Shown one piece after another: positions 4,620-34,233 of a stretch of DNA of 34,233 nt (positions within the stretch are counted from its first letter, which is position 1; every line of letters begins with the position of its first letter). Origin of the DNA: a virus; the IMG/VR virus record IMGVR_UViG_3300025151_000010, positions 1-34,233 of that record, one strand, 5' to 3'. The notes under the pieces are model-generated. The model did not search any database and had not been told where the DNA came from. It worked only from the letters and a program-made list of their open reading frames with translations. Position numbers and translations under genes: made by a program.

Positions 4620-4880
4620 TTACTTATTTCGTAATATGAGATTACCCTGGTGTACCTCCTTTAGCCAGGCTTTTTTCTTGGGCACATCTCCGTACTCGTT
4701 ATGACACCATCGGCATAATGCCATGAGGTTGTCAATGTGGTCGGCCTTTTTAGAACCTCCCATTCCCCGTGCCTCAATATGGTGTATGTCGACTGCCTTG
4801 CTTTGACATACTTCGCACGGTATAAAATCAGTCGCGTGATACCCCATTCCTTTGAGGTAAATCATTGTGTGTTTCTTCAT
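4620..4880 (-). CDS. HNH endonuclease (86 aa)
   Basis: Contains CEVCQSKAVDIHHIEARGMGG...NLMALCRWCHNEYG, i.e. CxxC...HH...N...CxxCH, the HNH zinc-finger nuclease pattern. Start placed at MKKHTMIYLKG (4880). Confidence 0.85.
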   Translation of the reverse strand: MKKHTMIYLKGMGYHATDFIPCEVCQSKAVDIHHIEARGMGGSKKADHIDNLMALCRWCHNEYGDVPKKKAWLKEVHQGNLILRNK

Positions 4881-5016
4881 CTGCGTACATCTTTTTGTAG
4901 CGAAGCAAAGTACGGTCGGATATGCCCAGGGCATCAGCCGCCTCCTTAAGCGTTTTGAAGCGTTTTAAGGCCGTTTTAACATGAAGGCGAGTGTGGTATT
5001 CGATATTCAAATTCAT
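4828..5016 (-). CDS. small helix-turn-helix DNA-binding protein (62 aa)
   Basis: TLKEAADALGISDRTLLRYKK is a Fis/excisionase-style HTH. The C-terminus overlaps the HNH start out of frame. Confidence 0.55.
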   Translation of the reverse strand: MNLNIEYHTRLHVKTALKRFKTLKEAADALGISDRTLLRYKKMYADEETHNDLPQRNGVSRD

Positions 5017-5192: not shown

Positions 5193-5441
5193 TGTAGTAA
5201 GTGTAAAGTGGTTAGTAATAGAATCGTCATTGTGAGGCTTGCAAGCACCACAACCCCAATAAGATACAAAAAATTAATTAACGTGCAACCCATTGTACAT
5301 CGAACCATCTTGCGAATGTGTGTTGCTCATCGTGATGAAAACTGAACAACGTAAATGTGAAGTTTGTAACATCGACCTCAAGGAAGCCAAGATGAAGGCC
5401 GTGCCTCCAATAACAGTAGAATAATTTAACGTCTAACATAA

Positions 5442-5924
5442 CTATTTAATTGATTGATAATGCTTTCTCCATAGTAACGCGCAGTACGCCTGGCGTTGCT
5501 TTTTGAATTTGTATTTACGGCGCAATACATTGTCAGCAATGCGAATGAATCGGGTACGGTACCATTCTAAGTCTAACTCCTGGGGTGTTTTGATTTCCAG
5601 GTCAAGAATCAAACTGTACTTATTCGACCAGTAGCCCTCCTCATTTAGGGCGAACAAGATTAGGTCGGCAATTTCCCATTCTCCTATGCGGATATTTTCG
5701 TCCTCAAGAAGTATTTCCTGGTCGCCTTCGTACCCTACTCTTAACTCCCACGTATCGATATAGCGACCCAAATCAAGGTCAATGTATTCGTAGCGGAATT
5801 CATTCTCGGCACATAACTGTACGATGCCTTCCTTAATATCAACCGTGTACCAATATGCACGGCCGTTAATTCTTACTCGCTCCGCCTCGGGAAATACGAT
5901 GGTGTTGTTATTCTTCGTGTGCAT
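5442..5924 (-). CDS. hypothetical protein (160 aa)
   Basis: ORF with a TAATG-type overlap to the upstream gene at 5924. Confidence 0.65.
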   Translation of the reverse strand: MHTKNNNTIVFPEAERVRINGRAYWYTVDIKEGIVQLCAENEFRYEYIDLDLGRYIDTWELRVGYEGDQEILLEDENIRIGEWEIADLILFALNEEGYWSNKYSLILDLEIKTPQELDLEWYRTRFIRIADNVLRRKYKFKKQRQAYCALLWRKHYQSIK

Positions 5925-6142
5925 TATTCCTCGGTTGTAAATTCGTATGCAATCATAAACACGGCTTCACTAAGTGAACGCCATAAAGAATCCATGTATT
6001 CCTCAACATCAACCGAGGCACACGATACGTGCCACTTGTTTGTTCCCTCAATCTCGGGGTAGTATGCGATGTAGAATGTATGACCAGCGAAATCAAACTG
6101 GTAAAATCCTTTTCTAAGTTTTTTGGCTTTTGTAGTATTCAT
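5924..6142 (-). CDS. hypothetical protein (72 aa), first gene after early promoter P3
   Basis: The ATG follows the leader AACCAAAAGAGAAAAGGCA downstream of P3. Confidence 0.65.
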   Translation of the reverse strand: MNTTKAKKLRKGFYQFDFAGHTFYIAYYPEIEGTNKWHVSCASVDVEEYMDSLWRSLSEAVFMIAYEFTTEE

Positions 6143-6164
6143 TGCCTTTTCTCTTTTGGTTTAT

Positions 6165-6199
6165 CCAAATTACAGAACACTATTTTAGTTATACAACAC
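6165..6199 (-). promoter_or_regulatory. conserved early promoter element P3
   Basis: Minus strand reads GTGTTGTATAACTAAAATAGTGTTCTGTAATTTGG, immediately after the terL stop. Confidence 0.55.
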
Positions 6200-6217
6200 C
6201 CCAGGGAAAAAAATTTT

Positions 6218-7390
6218 TTATCGAATATGGTATACGCCGTAGTTGGGATTTGATTTCGTCATATAAACCGAATAGCGTAGGGCATCGATAAGGTGGTTGA
6301 AGGCATCTACGGGAGTGTTTAAGGTTTGCCCGTTTCGGTCTTGCTTCCATTTGTAGTTCCTCATTTCCTTTATGCCATTGTTCGAGCCTGGCGTCCAAAA
6401 TAATTTGTGCCTTCTTAGAATATCAATTCCAGCGTTAACCGAATCCTTGCCTTTTGATGCTGGGCGAATCTTGAATCCCCACCGCTTTAGTTCCTCAATT
6501 GATTTCGGTTCTGCCGAATCGGCATAAATGATTTGACCTTGTATGCCCATGTCCTTAAGCCGTGAGGCGATGTCTGAGTTCGTCATTCCTATTTCGTAGA
6601 GTAGTTCCTCGAAATACAAATTGTCGCCCTTAGAATACACCCCAACCAATGCAGTCGGGTCGTTGCTAAATCCCCAGTCCAATCCGTATGCCAGGAATTC
6701 GGCATCGTTGGGAATGTTGCTGGTTTGAAAAGTGAATATGACTGCCCTGGATTGTGCCCGTTCTCCAAGCCCGTAAATCTTCCAATAAACCTCGTCAGTT
6801 TGTTTAAGTTTTTCGATTTCCTGGCGTAACGATTCATCAAGGAAGGGATTGTCCAGGTAAGTAGTTATATCGAATCTACAATCTTCCCTGGGTATTACCT
6901 TATCATAAATCCAGTGGAATTCTTCCGACGGGTTGAAGTCCATTATTACCTTCTCGGTAGTACGGATATTCAATTGAAAGAAATCCTCGTAGGTTAATTC
7001 ATTGGCCTCGTTGATGAATACCAAATCCCTCTTACGCCCCCGTATCTTTTGGGGCTGGTCAAGGGAAATAAATTCAACCGTATTTCCAAAGAGTTCGTAT
7101 TCGTGGCTTGATTTGTTATGAGCGTCGGGAAAGTACAGACCTTTTTCAGTCAAGATGTTTACGAAGTCCCTCATTACCGAAGCACGAAGTGAAGGGAAAG
7201 TCTTACGGCATATTGTAACCGTTTTCCCCTGGTTGTTATGCCTTAAGGTGTACGAGAAAATAAGCCACAAAAGAATGTTGTAGGTTTTACCCGAACGAGT
7301 ACCCCCTTGTTGTACTACATACCTCTCCTCGCTTTGTTCCAGGTATTCAAATACAACATTTGACTTGAATGTTAATTCGTTTCCAATCAT
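6218..7390 (-). CDS. terL: terminase large subunit (390 aa, short PBSX/Terminase_3-like type)
   Basis: Walker A GGTRSGKT is present, followed by VFINEANE (Walker B-like). The C-terminal nuclease half has GLDWGFSNDPTA, IYADSAEP and DAFNHLIDALRY. There is an ATGA overlap with terS. Confidence 0.9.
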   Translation of the reverse strand: MIGNELTFKSNVVFEYLEQSEERYVVQQGGTRSGKTYNILLWLIFSYTLRHNNQGKTVTICRKTFPSLRASVMRDFVNILTEKGLYFPDAHNKSSHEYELFGNTVEFISLDQPQKIRGRKRDLVFINEANELTYEDFFQLNIRTTEKVIMDFNPSEEFHWIYDKVIPREDCRFDITTYLDNPFLDESLRQEIEKLKQTDEVYWKIYGLGERAQSRAVIFTFQTSNIPNDAEFLAYGLDWGFSNDPTALVGVYSKGDNLYFEELLYEIGMTNSDIASRLKDMGIQGQIIYADSAEPKSIEELKRWGFKIRPASKGKDSVNAGIDILRRHKLFWTPGSNNGIKEMRNYKWKQDRNGQTLNTPVDAFNHLIDALRYSVYMTKSNPNYGVYHIR

Positions 7391-7743
7391 TCATCTTTTC
7401 GCACTACCTCAACATTGACCTTCAATGGCATATTGTCTTGTCCCGTTATCTCCTGGCGTTCGACATACCCTCGGTGTTTGCCCTGGGTTTTAAGGGCGAA
7501 TATAATAGCCGTCATATTGCCCCCGTCAATACCTTGCATAAGTTTACCCTCAATGTAATCCAAGCGCATTTCTTTGATGTTGTCTACTTCCTTTGCAAAG
7601 TCGGGGTCATTACTTAACCAATCGTAATAAGTTGTCCTACCAATACCCACCTTTTTACACGAAGCCGTTACATTGCTTAAGGTCTTTTGGAGGGCATCAA
7701 GCATTGCTTTTTTATGGTGTTCGGTTTTGTTCGGTTTTGGCAT
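7387..7743 (-). CDS. terS: terminase small subunit (118 aa)
   Basis: N-terminal HTH (SCKKVGIGRTTYYDWLSNDPDFAKEV) is followed by a helical region (GNMTAIIFALKTQGKHRGY). It sits directly upstream of terL and is coupled to it. Confidence 0.75.
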   Translation of the reverse strand: MPKPNKTEHHKKAMLDALQKTLSNVTASCKKVGIGRTTYYDWLSNDPDFAKEVDNIKEMRLDYIEGKLMQGIDGGNMTAIIFALKTQGKHRGYVERQEITGQDNMPLKVNVEVVRKDE

Positions 7744-8567
7744 TACTTAATCAGTTGTAAAAATTCATTGCGAGCCTTCTCGTCTTCCTTAAAATATCCA
7801 ACCATCTTAGATGTGGTGGTGTAGGTGTCGTGCTTCTTTACCCCTCGCATACTCATACACATATGTTGTGCCTTTAATACAACGGCTACTCCCTTAGGCT
7901 GTAGTTCCTCCATCAATCGGTCTGCAATTTGCATTGTAATCCTTTCCTGGTTTTGTAGCCTACGAGAATAGGTTTCAAGGGTACGGGCTAACTTGCTCAA
8001 TCCAACGATTTTTCCATCGGGTATGTAGGCAATATGTCCCACCCCAAAGAAAGGGGCTATATGATGTTCGCAAAGGCTATGAAACGGAATGTTGGTTTGT
8101 ACTATCATCTCGTCCATTCCTTCCGAATCGAATACCGTGAAATTGAATTCGGGAGGCGATAAGAATTCACGCATAAATTTGAGGTAGCGTTTTGGTGTTT
8201 CCTTTAACCCTTCTCGTGTTGGGTCTTCGCCCAGGTATTGGAAGATTCGCACCATGTTATCTTCTACCTCCCCGTCTTCTTCTTTTTCCCAGGGGAATAC
8301 CAACCACTCGCCCTGGAGTTCCTTGCGTTTATCGAATAACGCTACGAATGGTTTTTCGGGAAATTCGGCTTTCCACTTAACTTCGGTTGCTCCCGAATCA
8401 ATTAGGTCGTCAATAATAACATCGGCAACGTGAGGATTCATAACGGCTTTTCCAGTTAGTGCGGCTGGGACGGCTCCTCCCCTGGGCACACCGTAGTATG
8501 TTACGTCCTTTGGCAAGGCATTAACTCTCTCGTAAACTTGTTCCCAGGTGATGTAGGTTTTTTTCAT
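7743..8567 (-). CDS. folE: fusion protein: N-terminal Gpt-like mini phosphoribosyltransferase domain + C-terminal GTP cyclohydrolase I (FolE), 274 aa
   Basis: The N-terminal part has YITWEQV, GVPRGGAVPAALTG, VIIDDLIDSGAT (PRPP loop) and EWLVFPWE, which match the blocks of xanthine-guanine PRTase. The C-terminal part has EGLKETPKRY, CEHHIAPFFGVGHIAYIP, GLSKLAR, QNQERIT and HMCMSMRGV, which are FolE signatures. Confidence 0.8.
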   Translation of the reverse strand: MKKTYITWEQVYERVNALPKDVTYYGVPRGGAVPAALTGKAVMNPHVADVIIDDLIDSGATEVKWKAEFPEKPFVALFDKRKELQGEWLVFPWEKEEDGEVEDNMVRIFQYLGEDPTREGLKETPKRYLKFMREFLSPPEFNFTVFDSEGMDEMIVQTNIPFHSLCEHHIAPFFGVGHIAYIPDGKIVGLSKLARTLETYSRRLQNQERITMQIADRLMEELQPKGVAVVLKAQHMCMSMRGVKKHDTYTTTSKMVGYFKEDEKARNEFLQLIK

Positions 8568-9296
8568 CTAAACTCCAGTTTTTTTATTCCAAATATCAAT
8601 GTGCAAACGGCTGGTGTATTTTAGTCGTTCACGTTTACAAATTTCTGCAACGGCTGGTGCGCTTTCCGATAGAAGATTCTTGTCCTCTCCACTCGGCATA
8701 AGCCATACTTGTTCCCTTTTAACGATAGGCAAGTAATCCACTCGTATTTCTTCCCATTCACTTTCAGTAGTTACAACGAATTTGAACATAGCATTCATTC
8801 GTGATACCGCTTTAATGACTTCGGGCTGGTAGGTTTGATTTCTTGTATTGCCCGAATTGGATAGTTTGGGACTAACATTCCATTGGTCGACTTCCCTAAA
8901 AAGGGCATCGCTTGGAAGTATCGTTCCGTTGGTTTCGATTTCAACGAATACCTCGGGGTTTATGAATTCACGAATGTATTGAATGAAATCTACCACCGCA
9001 TCTTGTTGCATTGTAGGTTCGCCCCCCGTAATAATTACATTCGCCCCGTCGTTGATTGCTTCCACGCATTCATCGTCAAGGATTTCTTCTACGGCTTTCG
9101 CCTGGGCATTCATCCATACTTCCAGGGTATCGCATCGGAAGGTTGCCCCGTTCATTAATTCCCCAGTAAACTGTGTACCCATACCTCCACACATAAGGTT
9201 ACAACCCCCCAGGCGCACAAATACGGCTGGAAATCCTGCGGTCTTACCCTCCCCTTGTATTGAGTAGAATACTTCGCTAATCGCTAACTTTCTCAT
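8568..9296 (-). CDS. queE: 7-carboxy-7-deazaguanine (CDG) synthase, radical-SAM QueE (242 aa)
   Basis: N-terminus EVFYSIQGEGKTAGFPAVFVRLGGCNLMC...FRCDT matches QueE, and IITGGEPT is also present. The Cys spacing reads CX3CX18C. Confidence 0.8.
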   Translation of the reverse strand: MRKLAISEVFYSIQGEGKTAGFPAVFVRLGGCNLMCGGMGTQFTGELMNGATFRCDTLEVWMNAQAKAVEEILDDECVEAINDGANVIITGGEPTMQQDAVVDFIQYIREFINPEVFVEIETNGTILPSDALFREVDQWNVSPKLSNSGNTRNQTYQPEVIKAVSRMNAMFKFVVTTESEWEEIRVDYLPIVKREQVWLMPSGEDKNLLSESAPAVAEICKRERLKYTSRLHIDIWNKKTGV

Positions 9297-9672
9297 AGGC
9301 TACTTTGCTGGATTTTGTTTCGGCCAGCGTTATCTTAGTTATGTTTATATGCTCACGAATGAGGTCGAATAGGTGCATAGCCATGTTCTCAGCACTCGTT
9401 TGAAATGGTAATGGAATGAACGGTTCATTGAGGTCGATAAGCGCTTGACACAACGGGTCTTCATCGTGTAGCAAAAAGTAGTGGTCAAACTGCTTAACAA
9501 TCGGTTCAACTATTTCATCGATGTCGCTAAACAAGACCGTCAAATCCCCGTCCATCTCCAAAGAAAATTCACACTCAACATCGTAAGTGTGCCCGTGTAT
9601 TCTACCGCACTTTACCCCCGCTTCTTTATTGCGGTGTGCGGCGTAAAAATGGTATACTTTAATTACTTTCAT
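9277..9672 (-). CDS. queD: 6-carboxy-5,6,7,8-tetrahydropterin synthase QueD (131 aa)
   Basis: Contains FYAAHR, CGRIHGHTYDVE, FDHYFLL, TSAENMA and LAETKSSKV, which are canonical QueD/PTPS T-fold blocks. Confidence 0.8.
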   Translation of the reverse strand: MKVIKVYHFYAAHRNKEAGVKCGRIHGHTYDVECEFSLEMDGDLTVLFSDIDEIVEPIVKQFDHYFLLHDEDPLCQALIDLNEPFIPLPFQTSAENMAMHLFDLIREHINITKITLAETKSSKVAYEKVSD

Positions 9673-10589
9673 TATTCTTGATTTCCGCCGTAGTAGGCAT
9701 ATTGTTTTTTCAATAGCATTCCAGCAAGTCCGTACTTGCCGTAATAGTCCAGGCGTTTAGGTGTAACCTCCATTTCAAAGTGCTGAAGAATGTTTTCCAC
9801 TTTCGTCCTGGTAAGCCCTTCAAGTTTGGCTTTATTAATGTCCCGATTCTTTACCTTGGTGGTTTTATCCCCGTGGTTGAATACCAGGCTACCCCACCGA
9901 TTAACTTGTTGCCAGGAAGTAGAATCCGCACTACTACAAAACGAGCATTGTTTTAGTAGGTTGTTTTCGGTACAACCCAGCAAGTGAATATCAATCGACG
10001 GCTTCTTATTCTTAATGTAGTTAGCCAGGCGAACAACATCTTCCTTGTAGGTCTTGCGATTTGTGATTCTTAATTCGGGTACGGATACGGCAATGTAATC
10101 GCTGAATTCAATTAATCGGTCAAGCCCTTTCTTTCCGTCCTCTTTATGAAAGACGTTTATTTGTCTTAGGTTCGTCATTTCACGCATTCGTTTGCGGAAT
10201 TCCCAGGCTTTTTCTACACCGAGGATTTTTTGACAGTCTACCTCAACGATTGTACCAGTATACCCCACCTCCTCGGTAAAGCCTACGAGTTCCTCTAACC
10301 ACCTTGTAACAAACTTTTCATCTCGCTCCCCAGCGTGTGCCCCAAACATCAAAGTAAATAACCCCGAATCCATTATTGTGTGCCTATGTGCGCTCGTCAA
10401 ATAACCAGGGCTTTGTGTGGTACAAGATTTCATCTTTAATGGCTTGATACCGAATTTGTGGGCGATGAAGGGAAACACGGTAAAGAGGGAGTACTTGATG
10501 TCCCCTATGTCGGTCAACGCCATCGCAAAATCCTGGTTCTCCAGTCCTGCGAAATGCACCTTGATGTTTTGTTGGTCGTTTACTATCAT
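9672..10589 (-). CDS. dpdA: DpdA-like DNA guanine transglycosylase (TGT superfamily), 305 aa
   Basis: IMDSGLFTLMFG matches the TGT DSGGFQ block, IHLLGCTENNLL matches LMGVG, and SSADSTSWQQ matches the catalytic-Asp block. There is no C-terminal tRNA-binding or Zn segment. The gene is embedded in the folE-queDE block. Confidence 0.65.
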   Translation of the reverse strand: MIVNDQQNIKVHFAGLENQDFAMALTDIGDIKYSLFTVFPFIAHKFGIKPLKMKSCTTQSPGYLTSAHRHTIMDSGLFTLMFGAHAGERDEKFVTRWLEELVGFTEEVGYTGTIVEVDCQKILGVEKAWEFRKRMREMTNLRQINVFHKEDGKKGLDRLIEFSDYIAVSVPELRITNRKTYKEDVVRLANYIKNKKPSIDIHLLGCTENNLLKQCSFCSSADSTSWQQVNRWGSLVFNHGDKTTKVKNRDINKAKLEGLTRTKVENILQHFEMEVTPKRLDYYGKYGLAGMLLKKQYAYYGGNQE

Positions 10590-10912
10590 CTTTCAACCCT
10601 TGCACCTCCCCTATTGTCTTCAAATACCTCAACCCAAACGGCATTAAATTCCTGGAGTAATTCCTTTGCAATCATTTCGCAAGACATACCCCAAAAGTGG
10701 CAAGGCGTTAAGTATTTTTTATGTAAATATCTTCGAATCTTGTCCTCCTGGATAAAGATTTCAATCTCTCGGTCATCGTGCCCCACTTCAAAGGCACAAC
10801 GAATACGAAATATGTGTCGGTGTTTGTACTTTAGAAATTCAACTTCGGGCAATGCCCCTTCCCATTGGTGGAAGCCGATAACATCTTGGTCGGTTATTAC
10901 GAGCGTCCTCAT
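10586..10912 (-). CDS. divergent QueD/PTPS-like T-fold paralogue (108 aa), function unknown
   Basis: It aligns by eye to the in-window QueD in three blocks: KHRHIFRIR vs HGHTYDVE, MSCEMIAKELL vs TSAENMAMHLF, and VFEDNRGGARV vs LAETKSSKVAY. It lacks the CxxxHGH Cys. It has ATGA overlaps with both neighbours. Confidence 0.5.
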   Translation of the reverse strand: MRTLVITDQDVIGFHQWEGALPEVEFLKYKHRHIFRIRCAFEVGHDDREIEIFIQEDKIRRYLHKKYLTPCHFWGMSCEMIAKELLQEFNAVWVEVFEDNRGGARVER

Positions 10913-11490
10913 TTTCCTAAGTAATCTTTAAGTAGTTTCCACACCGCCGCTTCATAGGATTCGGCTACGTGCAAAAGCCCTTCTTTTACCACTTCCAATT
11001 CTTCTTCCGTATAAGTGAGTACCAGGTTAGTCGCTGGTTCGATATCCTTAGCATCGTCCTCCTGGGGTTCATCAAAAAAGCCATCGAGGTCAACATCTTG
11101 CTCGGGCATCCATACATCTACCCCCATTTCTTTCAAAAAGCCAGGGTCGTATTCGTTAGCCAGGAGTTCCCAGTCGTATTCCCCCGAATGCACATTGTCC
11201 TTAATTACGAATCGGCGCATAGCCTTAGTATCTGCTACATTGCCAGGGACAATCATAACGGGTACCTCTTTCCACCCTAAATGTTGGTAGGCTCGGAAGC
11301 GTTGATTTCCCCCCTGGGCAACCATGTCCTCATCTACAATAATTGGACGGGCTTCACTCATCCATGAATCCTCCTCAATGCTTTTGACCAAGTTGGCGAA
11401 TTTCTCGTCCCGTATAACCCTGGGGTTGTTTGGGTTTGCTTTGACCTTTGAAATAGGTACGTATTCGACCTTAATTTTCGGCTTCTTCAT
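10909..11490 (-). CDS. ParB/Srx-like N-terminal domain protein (193 aa) with acidic C-terminal half
   Basis: VEYVPISKVKANPNNPRVIRD and GGNQRFRAY correspond to ParB box-type motifs (NPR, GxxRxxA). It is translationally coupled to the deazaguanine genes. Confidence 0.65.
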   Translation of the reverse strand: MKKPKIKVEYVPISKVKANPNNPRVIRDEKFANLVKSIEEDSWMSEARPIIVDEDMVAQGGNQRFRAYQHLGWKEVPVMIVPGNVADTKAMRRFVIKDNVHSGEYDWELLANEYDPGFLKEMGVDVWMPEQDVDLDGFFDEPQEDDAKDIEPATNLVLTYTEEELEVVKEGLLHVAESYEAAVWKLLKDYLGK

Positions 11491-11905
11491 ATGTATTGTA
11501 GACTTGATTTATTTCGGCAATGAATTCCTTCCAACGAACGGGCGCACAAGTACACGGTCTTGTATAGGGGTGTTGAAATAGCCTGGCGTGTAGCGTTGCA
11601 ATGAGGTCAAGTTCACTCTTTTGAAGTACCTCGCTATCCTTGTCCCGAAAGACAGTCCAGTTATTGTATTCATTTTCGGTCATACATAAGGGTTGTTTGT
11701 AAGGGAACAAGGCGTTCAGTTTTTCCTTGCGTTCATCACAACCGCAATCTTCCCCCGCAATAAATTTGACCAGGCTTTTAATCCCAGTCGCTTCCGTAAT
11801 TTTCTCCACGGTATCCCCTAATCCTTTCGCCTTGGGTTTTGCGCTTTTCTTCCTTGTACTGCTGGTATTCTTCTTCGCAGTTGTTTTTGATTTTTTCTCT
11901 GACAT
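11471..11905 (-). CDS. hypothetical Lys-rich / Cys-containing protein (144 aa)
   Basis: Basic N-terminus followed by GLGDTVEKITEATGIKSLVKFIAGEDCGCDERKEKLN. The first 128 nt overlap the sigma ORF out of frame. Confidence 0.6.
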   Translation of the reverse strand: MSEKKSKTTAKKNTSSTRKKSAKPKAKGLGDTVEKITEATGIKSLVKFIAGEDCGCDERKEKLNALFPYKQPLCMTENEYNNWTVFRDKDSEVLQKSELDLIATLHARLFQHPYTRPCTCAPVRWKEFIAEINQVYNTYEEAEN

Positions 11906-12362
11906 TTTTTAAGGTAATAAAGATTGATTTAGCACTAATGTTTGTTGCCCTTGCCAGGCTTCGTATCGAATGACCCTCCTCCAAATACACCTTCAAGAGT
12001 TTACGGTCATACCAATGTTGTTCTTCTAATTGCTTTTCTACGGCATTTAGAAGCGTTTTGAAGGCGTTTTCGTAATCGTTCTGTATACTGGCATCAAAAC
12101 TAAACGAAACGTCGTCTAAGGGCTTCTCTTTAGATTTGCGATGTAATGATGTAACCATATTCCCCAGGGCAGTAAAGATGTAGGCCGTGTTTAACTGGCC
12201 GTTGTATGTTAGTCGATTCAAATCGCCTTCCCTTTCCTGGATTGTATGCAATTTCATATACAAGTCTTGAACGATGTCCTCTTCAAAGCCCGACGGCGCA
12301 CCTAAGTAGACTGCAATCGCAATCCATTCGTCGTGCCGTTGTGCTATGTCGGTTAAGGTCAT
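11778..12362 (-). CDS. sigma-70 family, ECF-like RNA polymerase sigma factor (194 aa)
   Basis: The region-2-like block is EEDIVQDLYMKLH. The region-4 HTH is HSIRSLARATNISAKSIFITLKNVREKIK. The size is typical of group-4 sigmas. Confidence 0.7.
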   Translation of the reverse strand: MTLTDIAQRHDEWIAIAVYLGAPSGFEEDIVQDLYMKLHTIQEREGDLNRLTYNGQLNTAYIFTALGNMVTSLHRKSKEKPLDDVSFSFDASIQNDYENAFKTLLNAVEKQLEEQHWYDRKLLKVYLEEGHSIRSLARATNISAKSIFITLKNVREKIKNNCEEEYQQYKEEKRKTQGERIRGYRGENYGSDWD

Positions 12363-12380
12363 TCAAAGTATTTGTCTTTT

Positions 12381-12411
12381 CAAATATAAAACAAAATCCT
12401 AACTTGTCAAA
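12381..12411 (-). promoter_or_regulatory. canonical Bacteroidota-type promoter upstream of the sigma gene
   Basis: Minus strand reads TTTG-(19 nt)-TATATTTG, an exact match to -33 TTTG / -7 TAnnTTTG. It continues GAAAAGACAAATACTTTGA then ATG. Confidence 0.6.
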
Positions 12412-12749
12412 TACCACTGAATCTCCCTGGCGAATTCTAAGAAGCCACCGACCACCACATACCGATAGCCCTGGCTTTCAACCGCTTCCTCAAATGCCTT
12501 TTGATGTTTGGTCTGCCGTCCTTTGCCGTGTTTCATTTCAATACACAAGCCGTGGTACTCTCCCCTGGGAACAAGCAAAATCAAATCACTTACCCCAGGT
12601 AATAAGCCTTCACGCTTCATTCTAATGGCCGTTCCCCGATTTCTCATACCTCCATTCGGTACGCTAAAAAATACCCCAGCATAGCCAGGGTATTGAAGCC
12701 GAAACCACTTAACACATTCGGCTTGTAGGGCACTTTCAAGTTGCTTCAT
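12399..12749 (-). CDS. VRR-NUC domain nuclease (116 aa)
   Basis: PD-(D/E)xK core: PGVSDLILLV ... LCIEMKHGKGRQT. Size and layout are typical of VRR-NUC. Confidence 0.8.
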   Translation of the reverse strand: MKQLESALQAECVKWFRLQYPGYAGVFFSVPNGGMRNRGTAIRMKREGLLPGVSDLILLVPRGEYHGLCIEMKHGKGRQTKHQKAFEEAVESQGYRYVVVGGFLEFAREIQWYLTS

Positions 12750-12835
12750 TTTGCCTTGTTTTTACCCGTCCAATAAATCATTAACATACTAACGGTAATC
12801 GTCAGTATTACCACCATCCATTTGAATTCAATCAT
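12746..12835 (-). CDS. 29-aa single-pass membrane peptide, missing from the ORF track
   Basis: Read by hand: MIEFKWMVVILTITVSMLMIYWTGKNKAK. It exactly fills the gap between two genes, with a TAATG overlap upstream and an ATGA overlap downstream. Confidence 0.45.
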   Translation of the reverse strand: MIEFKWMVVILTITVSMLMIYWTGKNKAK

Positions 12836-13122
12836 TAGTACCCTAATTTCTTTTTCACTATACTTTGTTTAGCCTGGCGTTCCTGGTATTTCTCGCCCCT
12901 TAGTTCCTGGAATTCTTCCTGGAGTTTACGGCGTTGTCTTGTAATGGTATCCGCTGAGGTAAGTTTCCCCTGGGCATATTCTTGCAACAAGGTAAAGCCA
13001 GTCATTCGTGCTGGATTCTGTCCATCGCTGGAAAGTTCCCAAAACCAAACATTCGCCACTAACTTAAAATCGTCGTCCCGTAAGCCAGCGTTCTCTCTCA
13101 ATAGTTTTTCTACGTATTTCAT
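12835..13122 (-). CDS. hypothetical protein (95 aa)
   Basis: ORF in the early/replication block. Confidence 0.6.
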   Translation of the reverse strand: MKYVEKLLRENAGLRDDDFKLVANVWFWELSSDGQNPARMTGFTLLQEYAQGKLTSADTITRQRRKLQEEFQELRGEKYQERQAKQSIVKKKLGY

Positions 13123-13264
13123 CGTCCCTTCTTTTGATTAGTAATTTCGTTCTATCCGCCCAGTATTCGGCATCTTCTATGGTTTTACATTCGCCACAGT
13201 TTTGTGCTTCGAATGTGCCCACGGTCAAGGCATTACCGCATTCGCAAAAATCAAATCTTTCCAT
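13064..13264 (-). CDS. small zinc-ribbon-like protein (66 aa)
   Basis: MERFDFCECGN...NCGECKT has CxC...CxxC. Start chosen at 13264. The 3' end overlaps the next gene by 59 nt. Confidence 0.4.
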   Translation of the reverse strand: MERFDFCECGNALTVGTFEAQNCGECKTIEDAEYWADRTKLLIKRRDDEIRRKTIERERWLTGRRF

Positions 13265-13940
13265 CTTCAATCGCCTTTTCAATAATTGAAGCCACCTTTA
13301 TAGCATTTTGTAAATCCTCGTTACTTGGCTCGGTGTAAGAATACCCCAGGGCTTTAAGTGGGTCGTTGGATTTTTTATTGCTTAAATGGTGCTTGTATTG
13401 GCGTTCGCAATACTGGGAAAGTTTCCATTCCAGTTCAGCGTATTTATCGTCAAGGTATTCCTTGTCAATCCACCCCTTCTTCTCCACCCACGAAGCCAGG
13501 GAAGAAAGGCTTTTGATATTGAATTTGAATAGCCACTTGGTATCCTCAAATGATTTTTTATAATCATCAGCAACGGCGTGCAAGGCTTTACGGCTTACCT
13601 TTTCCTCGTCTCTTTCGGGCATTTGGTAGGCTTGTTTTTGCTTTTGGAAATACCTTGATTTGTTTGGTGTTGACTTTAGGAATTCACGTATGAGTTTTAT
13701 AATAAGCACGGCCGTAAGTTGGCGTGTTTTGGGGTCGTAGTTTCCCTGGAGAAACCATTCGACCGAATCCTCCAGGAGTTGTACTTCATAATTCTTCCAG
13801 GTATGGCGTACATATTCAATTGTCGACTTCGGGTCGCCAGGCGGATTCATACCGCCCAGGTCAATGAGCCTTTTAACAATAGCCCCCAGTTCTTCGTTGC
13901 TTTGTTGTCCTATTTTCATTTTGGTTATCGTTAACTCCAT
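13251..13940 (-). CDS. hypothetical protein (229 aa), replication module
   Basis: Long ORF coupled to the replication-initiator-like gene. No motif recognised. Confidence 0.6.
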   Translation of the reverse strand: MELTITKMKIGQQSNEELGAIVKRLIDLGGMNPPGDPKSTIEYVRHTWKNYEVQLLEDSVEWFLQGNYDPKTRQLTAVLIIKLIREFLKSTPNKSRYFQKQKQAYQMPERDEEKVSRKALHAVADDYKKSFEDTKWLFKFNIKSLSSLASWVEKKGWIDKEYLDDKYAELEWKLSQYCERQYKHHLSNKKSNDPLKALGYSYTEPSNEDLQNAIKVASIIEKAIEDGKI

Positions 13941-20324: not shown

Positions 20325-22163
20325 TTATGCACGTACACCGCTTACAGCGACATAGTAAGTTCCACTTGGTAATGTGCCCGATGTAATATCGCGCGTGTCC
20401 GAGGCTTGGTTTATTTCACAATGAACCATGTCCCCGTCGGAATTGTATACCGATACATTACAAGGGAATTCCGCACGGTGGGTTGTACCAGCGATTGAGA
20501 AACTTGTCGCACTTGTGAATGTTTCGTTGTACGATACATACAAGTTAGTCAATGCGACGTTGTTTCCGCTATCGTTATCCGAAGCACTTATACCCGTGTG
20601 CGAAGCATTTCCAACCATTACATCACCCACTAAATCACGAATTTCTTCGTCGCTTCTTTGAGTGTTTGTATCCGTAGCACTAAGTACGCCGTTGCTGATG
20701 CTTAGGTTTGTACCTACTTTAATACCACCAAGCGTACTTGCTGATGCCGTTGGAAGCGAGTAGGCATTTGCGCTTTCTTCAATGTTAGAAAGTTTATCTT
20801 TTTCCTCCTGGGTAAAGTTTGTGTCCGACTGAACATCTGCCGAAATAACCCCCGAAGAAATAGTAATACGGCTACCAATTTTTACCCCACCAAGGGCTGA
20901 AGCCGTTGCCGTATCCAAACTAATATCGTTGGCGTTAGCCGTAATACCAGTTCCACCAACAACATTCAAGGTAGCACTACCCGATGTTGCCCCACCAGTC
21001 AAACCGTTGCCAGCGACTACGGCAGTAATATCTCCCGAGTTGTTTGAGTATTCGGAAGTGATAGGAATGTTGTAGTACGTAGAACCATCGTTTGTGAATT
21101 GCCATCTATCGGTAGATTCATTCCAGCGTAGTAACGTGTTGGTTGACGTACCACGTTCGATTTCAATACCAGCGTTCTCTGAAGGCGTACCCGATTCATC
21201 GTTGTTCAATACAATGATGTTATCGCCCGTTGATACCGTCGTCGAGTTAATCGTAGTCGTTTCGCCATCTACACGAAGGCCACCAATGATTCTTACTTGG
21301 TCTCCAGCATCGCTACCAATGGTAATTGTGCCCGAAAGTTGACCTAAACGTGTTTGAAGATTTGAAGCGCTTACATTGACATCGGTATTCGTAGTTTGGT
21401 CTACCCAGGAGAATGTACCATCGCCGTCCGACTTAAGCACCTGGCCAGCCGTTCCGTTTGCGCCTACTTTCAATTCACTTGCGCCTACACTATTGGCATC
21501 GATTTGCGCTGAACCTACACTATCCAATGAGGCAAGTGCTCCACTTGGAATAGTTGGCGTGCCAGTAAGCGAAGAATACGCCCCGTCAAAAGATGAAGTA
21601 CCAGCCCCAATCAAAGTACGAATTTCTCCAGCCGTTACCCCAGTAGCCAAAGTTGGTGTACCACCGCCTCGGTTAATTGCTGGTTCATTCGTATTGGTTG
21701 CCCCGTCAGCGATGTTTTCTAACTTATCCTTTTCATCTTGCGTGAAATTGGCTTCCGATTGTACGTCTGCGCTAATTACACCGCTTGAAATGGTAATGCG
21801 TGAACCGATTTTTACACCCCCTAATGTAGATGCAGTAGCCGTGTCCAGGGCAATGTCATTTGCATTTGCCGTGATACCCGTACCACCGACTACGTTAAGA
21901 GTAACCGAACCACTCGTACCACCGCCCGTAAGACCAGCACCAGCCGTTACACCAGTTATGTCCCCAGTCGCTGAAGATAGGTTTACCCAAGACGACCCGT
22001 TGTAGAATCGAATTTCATTGTCCGAGGTATTGTAGTAAATCTGTCCCGCACTCGGACCTGACGGGTTTGTTGATGCGTTTTGTAAACGGGCATTCTTAAG
22101 AAGATTACCGTTTAACTCTAACGCGCCCGACAAGTCTATGTCGGAAAGAAACTTTAATGCCAT
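20325..22163 (-). CDS. long tail fibre protein (612 aa) with an internal 85-aa duplicated module
   Basis: N-terminal adaptor MALKFLSDIDLSGALELNGN...GQIYYNTSDNEIRFYNGSSW. Gly/Thr/Ser-rich repeats are present, and there is a duplicated module at aa 67-151 and 377-461. Confidence 0.8.
   Translation of the reverse strand: MALKFLSDIDLSGALELNGNLLKNARLQNASTNPSGPSAGQIYYNTSDNEIRFYNGSSWVNLSSATGDITGVTAGAGLTGGGTSGSVTLNVVGGTGITANANDIALDTATASTLGGVKIGSRITISSGVISADVQSEANFTQDEKDKLENIADGATNTNEPAINRGGGTPTLATGVTAGEIRTLIGAGTSSFDGAYSSLTGTPTIPSGALASLDSVGSAQIDANSVGASELKVGANGTAGQVLKSDGDGTFSWVDQTTNTDVNVSASNLQTRLGQLSGTITIGSDAGDQVRIIGGLRVDGETTTINSTTVSTGDNIIVLNNDESGTPSENAGIEIERGTSTNTLLRWNESTDRWQFTNDGSTYYNIPITSEYSNNSGDITAVVAGNGLTGGATSGSATLNVVGGTGITANANDISLDTATASALGGVKIGSRITISSGVISADVQSDTNFTQEEKDKLSNIEESANAYSLPTASASTLGGIKVGTNLSISNGVLSATDTNTQRSDEEIRDLVGDVMVGNASHTGISASDNDSGNNVALTNLYVSYNETFTSATSFSIAGTTHRAEFPCNVSVYNSDGDMVHCEINQASDTRDITSGTLPSGTYYVAVSGVRA
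20781..21035 (-). repeat. fibre repeat module copy 2 (aa 377-461)
   Basis: GDITAVVAGNGLTGGATSGSATLNVVGGTGITANANDISLDTATASALGGVKIGSRITISSGVISADVQSDTNFTQEEKDKLSNI. Confidence 0.85.
21711..21965 (-). repeat. fibre repeat module copy 1 (aa 67-151)
   Basis: GDITGVTAGAGLTGGGTSGSVTLNVVGGTGITANANDIALDTATASTLGGVKIGSRITISSGVISADVQSEANFTQDEKDKLENI. 74 of 85 residues are identical to copy 2. Confidence 0.85.
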
Positions 22164-32090: not shown

Positions 32091-34233
32091 TTACGGTTCT
32101 TCAGTTCCGCCACCGCCCGTGTCTACCTCGGATTCGTATGCGCTTGCTATAATGTTAGAAACCACCACAAAAGGTACTGACGGGGCATTAGGTTGTTGAG
32201 TGGTTCTCGTTCCGTTTACTGTATTGATGTTCCCCAGGGAAGTACCTTGCGACCCCGTACCCACAAATGTTATTCCGTTGTTATTGGCTGACGGCGTACC
32301 CACATTCCAGTTGTTGCCCGTGCTTGATGCCGAGTAAATGTTTATGTCGGGGTATGTCATTAAAGTAACCTTCGCTTCTTCCTTCAACATATCGTATTGA
32401 ATACCGTCGATTTTATAGTAGTAACCCGATATGTTTATTGTTTCGCTTAAGTCCAGGTCAAGCCACTGCCCTACTGGAAGCCGTAGGGTAAGTTCTACGA
32501 GCCTGGATTGTGAAGAATAGATGCGAGATATATAACCGAGCCAAAACTCGCTTAGAATCGTTTTTTCAGGGGCATCGCCACTAAGGGTAGATTCAAGACT
32601 AAACGCCAGGCTTCGAGAAGTCGACGCAGTTGGATAGGCATTGTACGGGCTTATGATTGGGAAGGAGGTTTTTAATGAGCCACCGAAATACCAATCGTCC
32701 GAAGATTTCAGCCCGTTGTAATAGAATAAAAGGAAGTTAATTTGAATCGGATTTAAGCCGTTATCCAATGCCTGGAATAATTGAATATCTGTGGTCGATG
32801 CAACACTCCCGTACTGGTTTATGTCCCGAATCAAAGTAGGTGGGAATACTTGGAAAGGGGATTGCACCTTCAAATCCTTGCTACCAAAATCTACCGAGGT
32901 GCTACTCTCCGATGACCCAAATTCACGAACGGCGTTTTGGGTAAATGCTTGGTTTTGGAAATCCGTTGATTTTTTATGCTTGAACGAAAGCCTTTTGGCT
33001 ACGTCAACCTTCTTGTGTACCACGGAGGAAATATCGGCGTACTTGCTCCAGTCTTTTGTTGCCCCGTTATCGTACCAATCCTTAAGCGGTTCTACATCGA
33101 TTCGCGAATCACTAATCGGAAGTAAAATACAGTTGAATGTTTGTAATACCCCGTTCAAGAATTCAGCCACTTTCACTTTAGGCATTAACTCGCCAAAATT
33201 GATATTCGTATTGCTACTTGTATTCGGTCCCGATGTACATTCGAATGTTATATTGCTAATCTGCGCTCCCGATTGCGTAGAAGAATAACGCATTGTAATC
33301 AAATCCCCAGCGGCGAGAGTAACCGCAAAAGAATCCGTCTTATTTCCCGTAGTGGTATGCGTATTTCCATTGGCTACGCTTGAACCATTCTTGTATAGTT
33401 TTGAGGCGATTGTTCCACTTTGGGTAGTGGCTACATAGTACGAGTTTGTGAATGAATATAACCCAGCCGTAGGCGCAGTAAAAGTACCCGAGGTATAGTT
33501 CATTGCATTGACCGTATCTAAGGCCTCAGCCGTGTAGGTCATTGTAACATAAAAGTTACTCATACCAAAGTTGTAGGTCGTCGCCCTGGACACTTCAAAT
33601 TTAGGTACGACGGTGGCTACATTTAATGTACCAGCGTAAGCCGAGGGGCACACATAAAGGTCATCAAGGTGGGAATTCGTATAGAAACTTCCCTGGCTAT
33701 CATATCCGTAATGTGTGAAAATCGCCTTTACCATTTCGGTCAATAAAAGGGCTGGTTTCAAATCGGAAATGGTAACGCCCCCCGTACTTGTCGCTATGTT
33801 TTTTGAGATAGAAGTACCAGCCGATGAATAGTTAAAGGCTTCGCCCCAGGCAATCACGGGGTACATAACCTTACCACTAAGCAAGTTTCCGTTCCAGGAA
33901 TTCGTTATGTTTTGGGAAGTACGGGCATGAGTATAGTCGTCCCATTGAATCGCCTGGAGAGTATCTTCTCCCATAGACGAGGACAGTTTTTTGTTGTCCC
34001 CGTAAAACACGATTGAATAGTCCTGGGGTTGCCCGTCCTTGAATGTTACGCTATTTAATTCTACTACGCCGTTGAATACTTCGATGCCGTCTATTTCGAT
34101 AACCGCTGGGGTCTTGTTGTGGGCATCGTATCCACCTACAACATCAACATTGTAATAGTGTTTGAAAGCCTTATTATTTCGGGTTGATGCTGGTACCTTA
34201 AACGATTGGGAATAATCGCTGACAACCGATTTA
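32091..34233 (-). CDS. 3' part (plus junction overlap) of the 745-aa tail-tip/baseplate-like structural protein gene; the true start is at 194 across the circular junction
   Basis: The frame stays open upstream of the track start (GTG at 34010) to the window edge and joins in frame to 194..1. The protein is Ser/Thr/Asn-rich and typical of tail tip or fibre proteins. Confidence 0.8.
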   Translation of the reverse strand, partial: KSVVSDYSQSFKVPASTRNNKAFKHYYNVDVVGGYDAHNKTPAVIEIDGIEVFNGVVELNSVTFKDGQPQDYSIVFYGDNKKLSSSMGEDTLQAIQWDDYTHARTSQNITNSWNGNLLSGKVMYPVIAWGEAFNYSSAGTSISKNIATSTGGVTISDLKPALLLTEMVKAIFTHYGYDSQGSFYTNSHLDDLYVCPSAYAGTLNVATVVPKFEVSRATTYNFGMSNFYVTMTYTAEALDTVNAMNYTSGTFTAPTAGLYSFTNSYYVATTQSGTIASKLYKNGSSVANGNTHTTTGNKTDSFAVTLAAGDLITMRYSSTQSGAQISNITFECTSGPNTSSNTNINFGELMPKVKVAEFLNGVLQTFNCILLPISDSRIDVEPLKDWYDNGATKDWSKYADISSVVHKKVDVAKRLSFKHKKSTDFQNQAFTQNAVREFGSSESSTSVDFGSKDLKVQSPFQVFPPTLIRDINQYGSVASTTDIQLFQALDNGLNPIQINFLLFYYNGLKSSDDWYFGGSLKTSFPIISPYNAYPTASTSRSLAFSLESTLSGDAPEKTILSEFWLGYISRIYSSQSRLVELTLRLPVGQWLDLDLSETINISGYYYKIDGIQYDMLKEEAKVTLMTYPDINIYSASSTGNNWNVGTPSANNNGITFVGTGSQGTSLGNINTVNGTRTTQQPNAPSVPFVVVSNIIASAYESEVDTGGGGTEEP
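34135..34233. repeat. 99-bp terminal direct repeat, copy 2
   Basis: Identical to 1..99. Confidence 0.95.

Follow-up and report, generated by a model that had tools for sequence, protein, structure and literature searches.

The gene block and its genomic setting

The DNA examined here is a 34,233-nt viral sequence, IMG/VR record IMGVR_UViG_3300025151_000010, which was analysed in full (the window; positions count from its first letter). On its minus strand, directly upstream of the terminase genes, lie six consecutive genes that encode a ParB-like protein, a small T-fold protein, a putative guanine transglycosylase of the DpdA family, QueD, QueE and a FolE preceded by a miniature phosphoribosyltransferase (PRT) domain. 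We hold with moderate confidence that this block is a self-contained module that swaps guanine in the phage's own DNA for a 7-deazaguanine base, most likely yielding 2'-deoxy-7-deazaguanine (dDG). Phages use 7-deazaguanine DNA modifications as a counter-defence against restriction enzymes and Cas9.

The window carries an identical 99-nt direct repeat at its two ends (1-99 and 34135-34233) that represents an assembly overlap. The contig is therefore complete: it closes into a circle of 34,134 bp and comprises the whole genome of a small tailed phage, so that the absence of a gene from it is meaningful. All sizeable open reading frames (ORFs) are on the minus strand.

The block starts with the gene for the ParB-like protein (193 aa; 10909..11490), followed by those for the T-fold protein, assigned below to the DpdL family (108 aa; 10586..10912), the putative transglycosylase (305 aa; 9672..10589), QueD, the 6-carboxytetrahydropterin synthase (131 aa; 9277..9672), and QueE, the radical-SAM 7-carboxy-7-deazaguanine synthase (242 aa; 8568..9296). 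The last gene encodes a fusion of the mini-PRT domain, about 98 aa that resemble xanthine-guanine phosphoribosyltransferase (XGPRT, Gpt; 8274..8567), with the GTP cyclohydrolase I domain of FolE (7743..8273). Next on the same strand are the genes for the small (terS; 7387..7743; phrog_309, E = 4.8e-10, and other terS PHROGs) and large (terL; 6218..7390; Pfam Terminase_3, 9e-24, and Terminase_3C, 5e-21) terminase subunits. Adjacent genes are joined by 4-nt ATGA overlaps (ParB/DpdL, DpdL/DpdA and terS/terL, where the terL start overlaps the terS stop), by 1-nt TAATG overlaps (DpdA/QueD and FolE/terS, where the terS start overlaps the FolE stop), by an overlap of 20 nt (QueD/QueE) or by a TAGATG junction with zero gap (QueE/FolE). 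An earlier note, made from the DNA sequence, had described six consecutive genes tightly coupled to the terminase, and both the ORFs and the junctions are confirmed. Because the block runs gaplessly into terS and terL, DNA modification is likely to be co-expressed with packaging.

Enzymes encoded in the block

The assignments of FolE, QueD and QueE are, by profile matches and conserved motifs, unambiguous. QueD matches Pfam PTPS (6e-21), TIGR03367 (2.5e-17) and phrog_2389 (2.3e-22) and retains an intact CxxxHGH motif, with C22 and H26 invariant among its relatives. QueE matches phrog_2076 over its full length (1.3e-53) as well as five NCBIfam QueE models (1e-15 to 1e-19), and the positions of its ExFxSxQGEG, GGEP, ETxG and SPK motifs are invariant or kept in at least 44 of 45 relatives. 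FolE matches Pfam GTP_cyclohydroI over residues 102-273 (6.2e-66) and TIGR00063 above the cut-off (4.3e-62); a Pfam 'QueF' match on the same protein was rejected as a weak T-fold cross-match beneath the 6e-66 FolE match. The route from GTP to 7-carboxy-7-deazaguanine (CDG) via FolE, QueD and QueE is established pathway chemistry.

The T-fold protein is, on the strength of its signature and alignments, a member of the DpdL family. DpdL was named, and proposed to be a CDG decarboxylase, by Cui, Hutinet et al. (NAR 2023, PMC10516641), who defined the signature LxxxHRHxF in place of the CxxxHGH of QueD. The 108-aa protein carries this signature as LKYKHRHIF; in the alignment, the HRH and Glu residues are retained and the QueD Cys is replaced by Leu. 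It matches phrog_17812 (8.5e-21) and shares 32-46% identity with the DpdL homologues aligned with it, namely, CGPG_00067 of phage phiST (32%), gp125 of Acidovorax phage ACP17 (34%), the protein of Chryseobacterium phage MA9V-3 (39%) and orf77 of Faecalibacterium phage Roos (46%); tblastn retrieves phiST CGPG_00067 at 5e-13 and also matches ACP17 and Roos. The T-fold recognized by the earlier note stands: the AlphaFold2 model (mean predicted local distance difference test score, pLDDT, 95.3) is a T-fold whose top match in the PDB by Foldseek is E. coli QueD (4ntk; E = 1e-5, template modelling (TM) score 0.62-0.70). The description of this protein as unassigned does not, given the published family. 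Comparison of the DpdL and QueD profiles yields a weak, full-length alignment (E = 4.4e-4); there is no match to DpdL in Pfam or NCBIfam, and a search of PDB sequences with the DpdL profile finds nothing significant (PTPS entry 2dj6, E = 0.71).

The 305-aa protein is filed, by family profiles and profile comparisons, as a divergent DpdA clade on the DpdA1/phrog_887 side, with a transitive link to DpdA1. The earlier note's assignment of 9672..10589 to the transglycosylases is borne out by phage family profiles (phrog_887, 'queuine tRNA-ribosyltransferase', 9e-21; phrog_7068, 1.9e-4) and not by the Pfam and NCBIfam collections. In public data, the protein has 1547 homologous protein clusters, of which 0 carry a Pfam domain. 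Its AlphaFold2 model is a TIM barrel (pLDDT 92.4) with phage models annotated as tRNA-guanine transglycosylase (TGT) or DpdA as its neighbours in BFVD (E = 1e-9 to 1e-4, TM 0.5-0.63); phmmer and the family profile find only chance matches among PDB sequences, and no TGT. In hhalign, the family aligns with the TGT of Fusobacterium phage phiFN37 (probability 98%, E = 1.5e-13), and this TGT is in turn 27% identical (E = 1e-11) to 9g and CAjan DpdA. The direct alignment of the family with 9g DpdA is marginal (E = 6e-4, probability 28%, 111 columns over the active-site region). No variation is seen across 28 family members in the motifs D74-S75-G76 and H202-L-L-G...D222-S-T-x-W226, and DSG and HLLG...DS(T)xW align with the corresponding residues of 9g DpdA and phiFN37 TGT. 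By analogy with known TGTs, the Asp of DSG (D74) and that of D-S-x-x-W (D222), the latter as the nucleophile, are the candidate catalytic residues.

The nearest characterized transglycosylases, by transitive homology, are thus the DpdA1 enzymes of Queuovirinae, such as Enterobacteria phage 9g and Escherichia phage CAjan (Hutinet et al. 2019, PMC6884629). Unlike the phage described here, 9g and CAjan carry QueC or Gat-QueC, insert preQ0 or G+, and have neither DpdL nor an adjacent ParB. Membership in DpdA3 was considered and rejected: BLASTP against phiST CGPG_00065 gives E = 0.36, hhalign gives E = 0.082 over 30 columns, and the phiST and MA9V-3 proteins fall in phrog_20335, whereas the 305-aa protein falls in phrog_887. 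ACP17 gp124 shows no similarity to the 305-aa protein by BLASTP, and both gp123 and gp124 lie outside phrog_887.

The mini-PRT, the N-terminal ~98 aa of the FolE fusion, resembles XGPRT and phage PRT models (NF006613, 7.8e-6; phrog_8995, 6.6e-6) and has no match to Pfam Pribosyltran. Among solved structures, E. coli XGPRT (1a95, E = 1.9e-5) is the closest to it, with query residues 24-58 aligned to Gpt 32-66 and residues 50-81 to Gpt 85-116; PRGG and the phosphoribosyl pyrophosphate (PRPP) motif VIIDDLIDSGAT are among the aligned elements. By these alignments, the domain appears to be a truncated purine phosphoribosyltransferase. Of 53 related FolE genes, 21 carry the domain as a fusion and 32 are without it; in one locus (L170) it is a separate gene directly upstream of FolE, and on a contig of a Saprospiraceae metagenome-assembled genome (L173) it stands at the end of a QueC-QueC-QueD-QueE cluster. 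Terminase-related loci that lack the deazaguanine block also lack the domain. The mini-PRT is seen in deazaguanine clusters only, of either the DpdL or the QueC type, and so is tied to 7-deazaguanine synthesis generally rather than to the dDG branch. Its role is speculative: by binding a purine or PRPP, it might return excised guanine toward GTP, the FolE substrate, or might provide purine- or PRPP-responsive control of FolE.

DpdL and QueC as alternatives in related loci

The pathway encoded in the block departs from the canonical route at CDG, as the earlier note had it: FolE, QueD and QueE are present and QueC is absent. Translation of the genome in six frames reveals no SGGxDS motif; non-overlapping ORFs of at least 60 aa have no Pfam match to QueC, QueF, ArcS or Gat-QueC/GATase, apart from the FolE cross-match mentioned above; and tblastn of three QueC sequences against the genome gives a best E of 0.6. 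These searches uncover no QueC homologue, and the absence of QueC from the complete genome is real.

Scanning of IMG/VR with the DpdA family provides 80 loci, 66 of them non-redundant, in which ORFs were labelled by profiles built from the proteins of this phage; DpdA is present in every compared locus by construction of the sample. The earlier note had found the gene combination unfamiliar. The layout is common, not unique: the canonical order is that of this phage, ParB-DpdL-DpdA-QueD-QueE-(PRT-)FolE-terS-terL, found in dozens of IMG/VR viral contigs.

QueD and QueE occur together in 56 of the 66 non-redundant loci. DpdL accompanies them in 52 of these and QueC in 3; no locus has both and 1 has neither. 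The three loci of the DpdA clade with QueC (L082, L083 and L086) all lack DpdL and share the same synteny, and the L083 gene (L083:3694-4479), which lies between DpdA and QueD, encodes a normal SGGQDS loop. The one locus with neither, L022, is truncated. Thus, DpdL and QueC behave as alternative consumers of CDG in one syntenic context, and this mutual exclusion is the best evidence obtained here for the action of DpdL at the CDG branch point.

A transporter of the YhhQ/Vut_1 type is encoded in ten loci, most of them without DpdL and all but one without QueE. The complete temperate genome of Faecalibacterium phage Roos (PP479939.1, 51706-54302; L001 and L211) has ParB-DpdL-DpdA-YhhQ/Vut_1 directly before the terminase, with all four genes annotated as 'hypothetical'. 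Separately, a small membrane protein (165-174 aa) with a weak Vut_1 match (E = 1.9e-5) is encoded between DpdA and QueD in one locus (L009:8890-9387) and about 11 others, mostly where FolE has no PRT domain; it has no counterpart in this phage.

The ParB-like gene and the slot before the terminase

In the ParB-like protein, an N-terminal domain of the ParB/Srx nucleotide-binding type is followed by an acidic linker, in which a D-x-FF-D/E motif is conserved, and then by a short C-terminal domain; no helix-turn-helix (HTH) domain is recognized in it. Residues 7-96 match Pfam ParB_N above the cut-off (1.4e-9), and the motif GxxRxxA is present as GNQRFRA. Among phage families, it matches phrog_620 (1.5e-21) and the N-terminus of the ParB-methyltransferase family phrog_498 (2.4e-21); in NCBIfam, there are only weak Noc/ParB domain matches below the cut-off. 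PADLOC detects neither DpdB nor the bacterial DpdA in this phage.

This gene rarely parts from the rest of the block. It adjoins DpdL or DpdA in 60 of the 66 non-redundant loci, and 5 of the remaining 6 loci end just upstream. ParB stays with DpdA also where the order is rearranged, for example, in L039 (QueD-QueE-PRT::FolE-DpdL-DpdA-ParB-terL). In the isolate phage phiFN37 (OR492271.1, L168), the order is ParB-TGT-DUF6884-YhhQ, where YhhQ is the queuosine-precursor transporter. The same phage has three separate ParB-like genes within 10 kb, one of them beside a PAPS reductase and one beside the TGT.

Whether ParB belongs to the phage backbone or to the cassette was addressed with 80 loci (L088-L167) fetched by terL similarity (57-65% identity). 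The deazaguanine block is present in 1 of the 80. In the other terL relatives, a ParB-like gene is accompanied by a different DNA-modifying enzyme in the slot between the genes for the sigma factor and p144, described below, and terS. The occupants include ParB::N6/N4 methylase fusions, TAGT (sometimes with Tet_JBP), Mom, and PAPS reductase with DUF3440 beside two ParB genes, as well as sugar-tailoring enzymes, an ATPase-GNAT protein, FkbM methyltransferase, an epimerase, PIG-L and WbqC. Where a terL-related locus lacks ParB, the slot contains nothing but small ORFs. The adjacent ParB-like gene is thus no peculiarity of the present block; the preferred reading is that of a constant companion to an exchangeable DNA-modification cassette before the terminase, a 'ParB-Tls locus', and it anchors varied modification cassettes in the terL relatives.

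ParB-Tls loci come from a proposal of Iyer and Aravind (cited in PMC4738411) that ties phage DNA modification to packaging. Such loci and the ParB-dependent thymine dioxygenases (PMC13229309) resemble the block in that a ParB with a nucleotide-binding-type domain and a C-terminal domain, but without an HTH domain, adjoins a DNA-modifying enzyme just upstream of the terminase. They differ in that a 7-deazaguanine cassette in this slot is not described for them in the searchable literature, which also contains no account of a phage ParB-DpdA pairing.

Two characterized systems indicate what such a partner might do. The bacterial DpdA is inactive on DNA without DpdB, a ParB-like ATPase (Gedara et al. 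2023, PMC10164549), and ParB176 is required by a phage thymine dioxygenase specifically on double-stranded DNA (dsDNA) (O'Toole et al. 2026, PMC13229309). Bacterial DpdA and DpdB share with the block the coupling of a DNA guanine transglycosylase to a ParB-superfamily protein with a nucleotide-binding motif, [D/G]G-x-x-R, in DpdB (PMC10164549). However, DpdB is a protein of ~44 kDa (~400 aa) with an SspE-like C-terminal domain and ATPase activity, whereas the ParB-like protein has 193 aa and another C-terminus; moreover, the bacterial Dpd proteins, which insert preQ0, form part of a restriction-modification system. By analogy with DpdB and ParB176, the ParB-like protein is probably an accessory that lets DpdA act on dsDNA.

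Word usage in the genome

The genome shows the extreme word usage pointed out earlier. GATC, AGCT, CCGG and CTAG each occur 0 times in the whole genome (57-126 expected), and GGCC, CGCG and CATG are depleted. CCWGG, the most over-represented 5-mer, is present at 207 sites, against 43 expected from base composition and ~134 from a third-order Markov model (z = 6.2). CAGG/CCTG is almost confined to CCWGG (ACAGG 0, GCAGG 3, TCAGG 3, CCAGG 207), and CCAGA occurs 0 times. In genes, 123 of 183 CCWGG sites are in the phase NNC CWG GNN, and this concentration of two thirds of the genic sites in one codon phase indicates selection at the DNA level. Drift caused by very-short-patch repair was rejected as the source of the excess, since CTTGG shows no depletion and hardly any DCAGG occurs. 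Among relatives that carry this module, the avoided palindromes are different ones, and CCWGG is either wholly lacking or enriched. The word pattern has the look of restriction avoidance that is host-specific and superimposed on base modification, with the CCWGG excess itself unexplained. The pattern may point to modification that is partial or motif-specific, as it is for DpdA1-type enzymes.

The predicted modified base and the alternatives

The closest published parallel of the block is the dDG pathway of phage phiST. It likewise has FolE, QueD and QueE without QueC, DpdL with LxxxHRHxF (32% identity) and a distant TGT-like transglycosylase (PMC10516641). In phiST, phi19:2 and phi13:1, which encode FolE, QueD, QueE, DpdL and DpdA3 but no QueC, deoxyguanosine (dG) is undetectable and replaced by dDG, with no dCDG (2'-deoxy-7-carboxy-7-deazaguanosine) found; DpdL has been noted also in further QueC-less phages with DpdA, FolE, QueD and QueE (PMC10516641). 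Since the published phiST gene set matches the block, the predicted product is dDG, not dCDG, and the earlier note's primary suggestion that CDG is the base available to the transglycosylase gives way to this prediction (PMC10516641). The two systems differ in several respects beyond the transglycosylase. The phiST cluster is without a ParB-like gene and a PRT domain, has a MazG-like gene, and lies among replication and lysis genes, whereas the block precedes the terminase; the phiST genome is 79 kb compared to 34 kb here. The host phylum, by contrast, may be shared: phiST infects Cellulophaga (Bacteroidota).

In the proposed pathway, FolE would convert GTP to dihydroneopterin triphosphate (H2NTP), QueD would convert H2NTP to 6-carboxy-tetrahydropterin (CPH4) and QueE would convert CPH4 to CDG. 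Here, in place of QueC, DpdL, which has a QueD-like T-fold but has lost the catalytic Cys of QueD, would decarboxylate CDG to 7-deazaguanine; we infer this step from the literature proposal together with the exclusivity of DpdL and QueC found here. The TIM-barrel DpdA enzyme, judging from its family membership, would then exchange G for 7-deazaguanine in the phage dsDNA after replication, presumably assisted by the ParB-like protein.

Several observations weigh against this pathway or parts of it. The activity of DpdL is unshown, and DpdL with DpdA of phiST or ACP17 gave no dDG in E. coli (PMC10516641). The 305-aa protein has no match at E <= 0.01 in Pfam (PF01702 included) or NCBIfam, and the top 50 Foldseek matches of its model in the PDB are generic TIM barrels (TM ~0.43) with no TGT among them. 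By its profile family, the transglycosylase is not of the DpdA3 type that accompanies dDG in phiST, so its base specificity is not inferable from phiST. For the ParB-like protein, PADLOC gives only the ParB N-terminus of type II methyltransferases and no DpdB match. The mini-PRT is without ~20-25 Gpt residues of the flexible loop region between the pyrophosphate loop and the PRPP motif, so its catalysis is uncertain. FolE, QueD and QueE are missing from some relatives that have ParB-DpdL-DpdA and a YhhQ/Vut_1 transporter, among them the complete Roos genome, which lacks QueC as well, and in Roos-type phages DpdL must therefore use a host-made or imported substrate, which may not be, or not only, CDG. 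Finally, the complete absence of four G-containing palindromes from the genome would be unexpected were every G already protected.

Four other explanations have to be considered, each of them less likely than insertion of 7-deazaguanine to give dDG. Foremost among these, and itself unlikely, is insertion of CDG as such, in which case the virion DNA would contain dCDG, and DpdL would either work on the DNA at a later stage or serve some unrelated purpose. If DpdL is disregarded, the encoded pathway does stop at CDG, and the decarboxylase activity of DpdL is only proposed; dCDG is natural in Sulfolobus virus STSV-2, and in a queC mutant, DpdA2 of Vibrio phage VH7D can insert CDG, though inefficiently (PMC10516641). 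However, phiST, with the same set and DpdL, has dG fully replaced by dDG and no detected CDG in its DNA, and the occurrence of DpdL in 52 of the 56 loci with QueD and QueE, exclusive with QueC, fits an enzyme that consumes free CDG.

Improbable, too, is completion of the route by host QueC, and possibly QueF, which would yield dPreQ0 or dPreQ1, with the phage genes merely raising the precursor supply. Such a route would suit a transglycosylase on the DpdA1 side, because the tested DpdA1 members insert preQ0, and the QueC genes that take the place of DpdL in three loci of the same clade would fit it as well; the YhhQ-type transporters of relatives also point to the use of preQ0 or preQ1. Yet DpdL and QueC are never found together, which suggests alternative fates of CDG rather than cooperation, and a phage that relied on host QueC would not need DpdL.

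The presence of a purine-PRT-like domain fused to FolE and restricted to deazaguanine clusters raises the prospect of entry before replication: the mini-PRT would make 7-deaza-GMP from 7-deazaguanine, followed by reduction, phosphorylation and incorporation by a polymerase, with the TGT-like protein playing a secondary role. The 100% replacement reached in phiST, which has a MazG/dUTPase-like gene in its cluster, could be taken in the same sense. We consider this route very improbable. ORF scans of the 34-kb genome detect no DNA polymerase, MazG/dGTPase, kinase or ribonucleotide reductase family, and the PRT is missing from many of the related FolE genes, occurs also in a QueC-type cluster and lacks the flexible loop region. 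Least credible of all is modification of tRNA, that is, a takeover of host queuosine: the family does descend from tRNA-guanine transglycosylases, as its PHROG label recalls, but the phage DpdA proteins tested so far all act on DNA, the gene occupies a slot that holds DNA methylases, TAGT, TET/JBP and Mom in related phages and is paired with a ParB-like DNA-associated protein, and no tRNA genes are found in the phage genome. Post-replicative exchange of guanine for 7-deazaguanine in DNA remains the preferred interpretation of the block.

Flanking genes and host

Upstream of the ParB-like gene, on the same strand, are the genes for an ECF (extracytoplasmic function)-type sigma factor (11778-12362; TIGR02937, 3.4e-7, and NF058625, 5.3e-7; weak matches to Bacteroidota-type models) and for a conserved Cys-rich 144-aa protein, p144 (11471-11905; phrog_32048, 4.9e-12). 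The two genes overlap by 128 nt, and the tight packing continues through both into the block. The order sigma-p144-ParB is kept in the terL relatives whatever cassette is present; the sigma factor and p144 belong to the phage backbone and not to the modification chemistry. The best sigma-70-like promoter match on this strand, TTGACA-16-TATATT (12383..12410; 11 of 12 matches, the top one in 5300-13300), lies just upstream of the sigma gene and could, with low confidence, mark the start of the operon; the total of promoter-like matches in the region is not above that in shuffled sequence, and the sigma-70-like consensus may not be the promoter type of the host. Terminator-like hairpins in the region are no commoner than in shuffled sequence.

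Elsewhere in the genome, family profiles identify structural and lysis genes (portal, XkdF-type protease, fibre-like proteins and amidase) as well as genes for a metallophosphatase, a replication-initiator-like HTH protein, a VRR-NUC nuclease and an HNH nuclease. No DNA methyltransferase family was detected in the ORF scans of the genome. The HNH endonuclease gene (4620-4934) lies ~1.3 kb downstream of terL, with three ORFs between, and the VRR-NUC nuclease gene (12399-12749) is upstream of the sigma gene; such nucleases are usual companions of packaging and replication modules. Of the two large fibre-like proteins (32091-34010 and 20325-22163), one has a C1q-like domain (Pfam 4.8e-5) and the other a Phage_head_fibr segment and internal repeats GVTAGAGLTGG...NVVGGTGITANANDI.

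Megablast of 6218-12400 against 50,697 phage records gives no match. The nearest hosts in the genome scan are Flavobacteriales and other Bacteroidota, and remoter relatives lie in prophages of Clostridia, Faecalibacterium and Veillonella; a Bacteroidota host for this phage is only inferred.

Implications

The core chemistry of the block is that of a published pathway. What is new is a large unannotated DpdA clade, a near-obligate ParB partner in a modular slot, the alternation of DpdL and QueC, and a deazaguanine-specific mini-PRT. The clade, with more than 1500 protein clusters without a Pfam domain, is missed by current annotation pipelines. DpdL, on which the dDG branch depends, is a predicted decarboxylase still awaiting reconstitution, and the alternation of DpdL with QueC in one synteny is a natural experiment on the CDG branch point.

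The ParB-like protein and the purine-PRT-like domain are two candidate missing partners and could explain the failed reconstitutions. We tentatively entertain, while regarding it as somewhat doubtful, a broader scheme in which ParB would be an obligatory, exchangeable adaptor that licenses post-replicative modifiers on dsDNA, DpdA in this phage and methylase, TAGT, TET-JBP, Mom or PAPS-reductase-like enzymes in sister phages, tying modification to packaging, and in which the mini-PRT would close a guanine loop from G via GMP and GTP to new deazaguanine. If this scheme is true, the lack of a ParB partner could be the reason why DpdL and DpdA failed to produce dDG in E. coli. The combination of ParB with a swappable cassette slot before the terminase offers a practical place to seek new DNA-modification chemistry in viral metagenomes.

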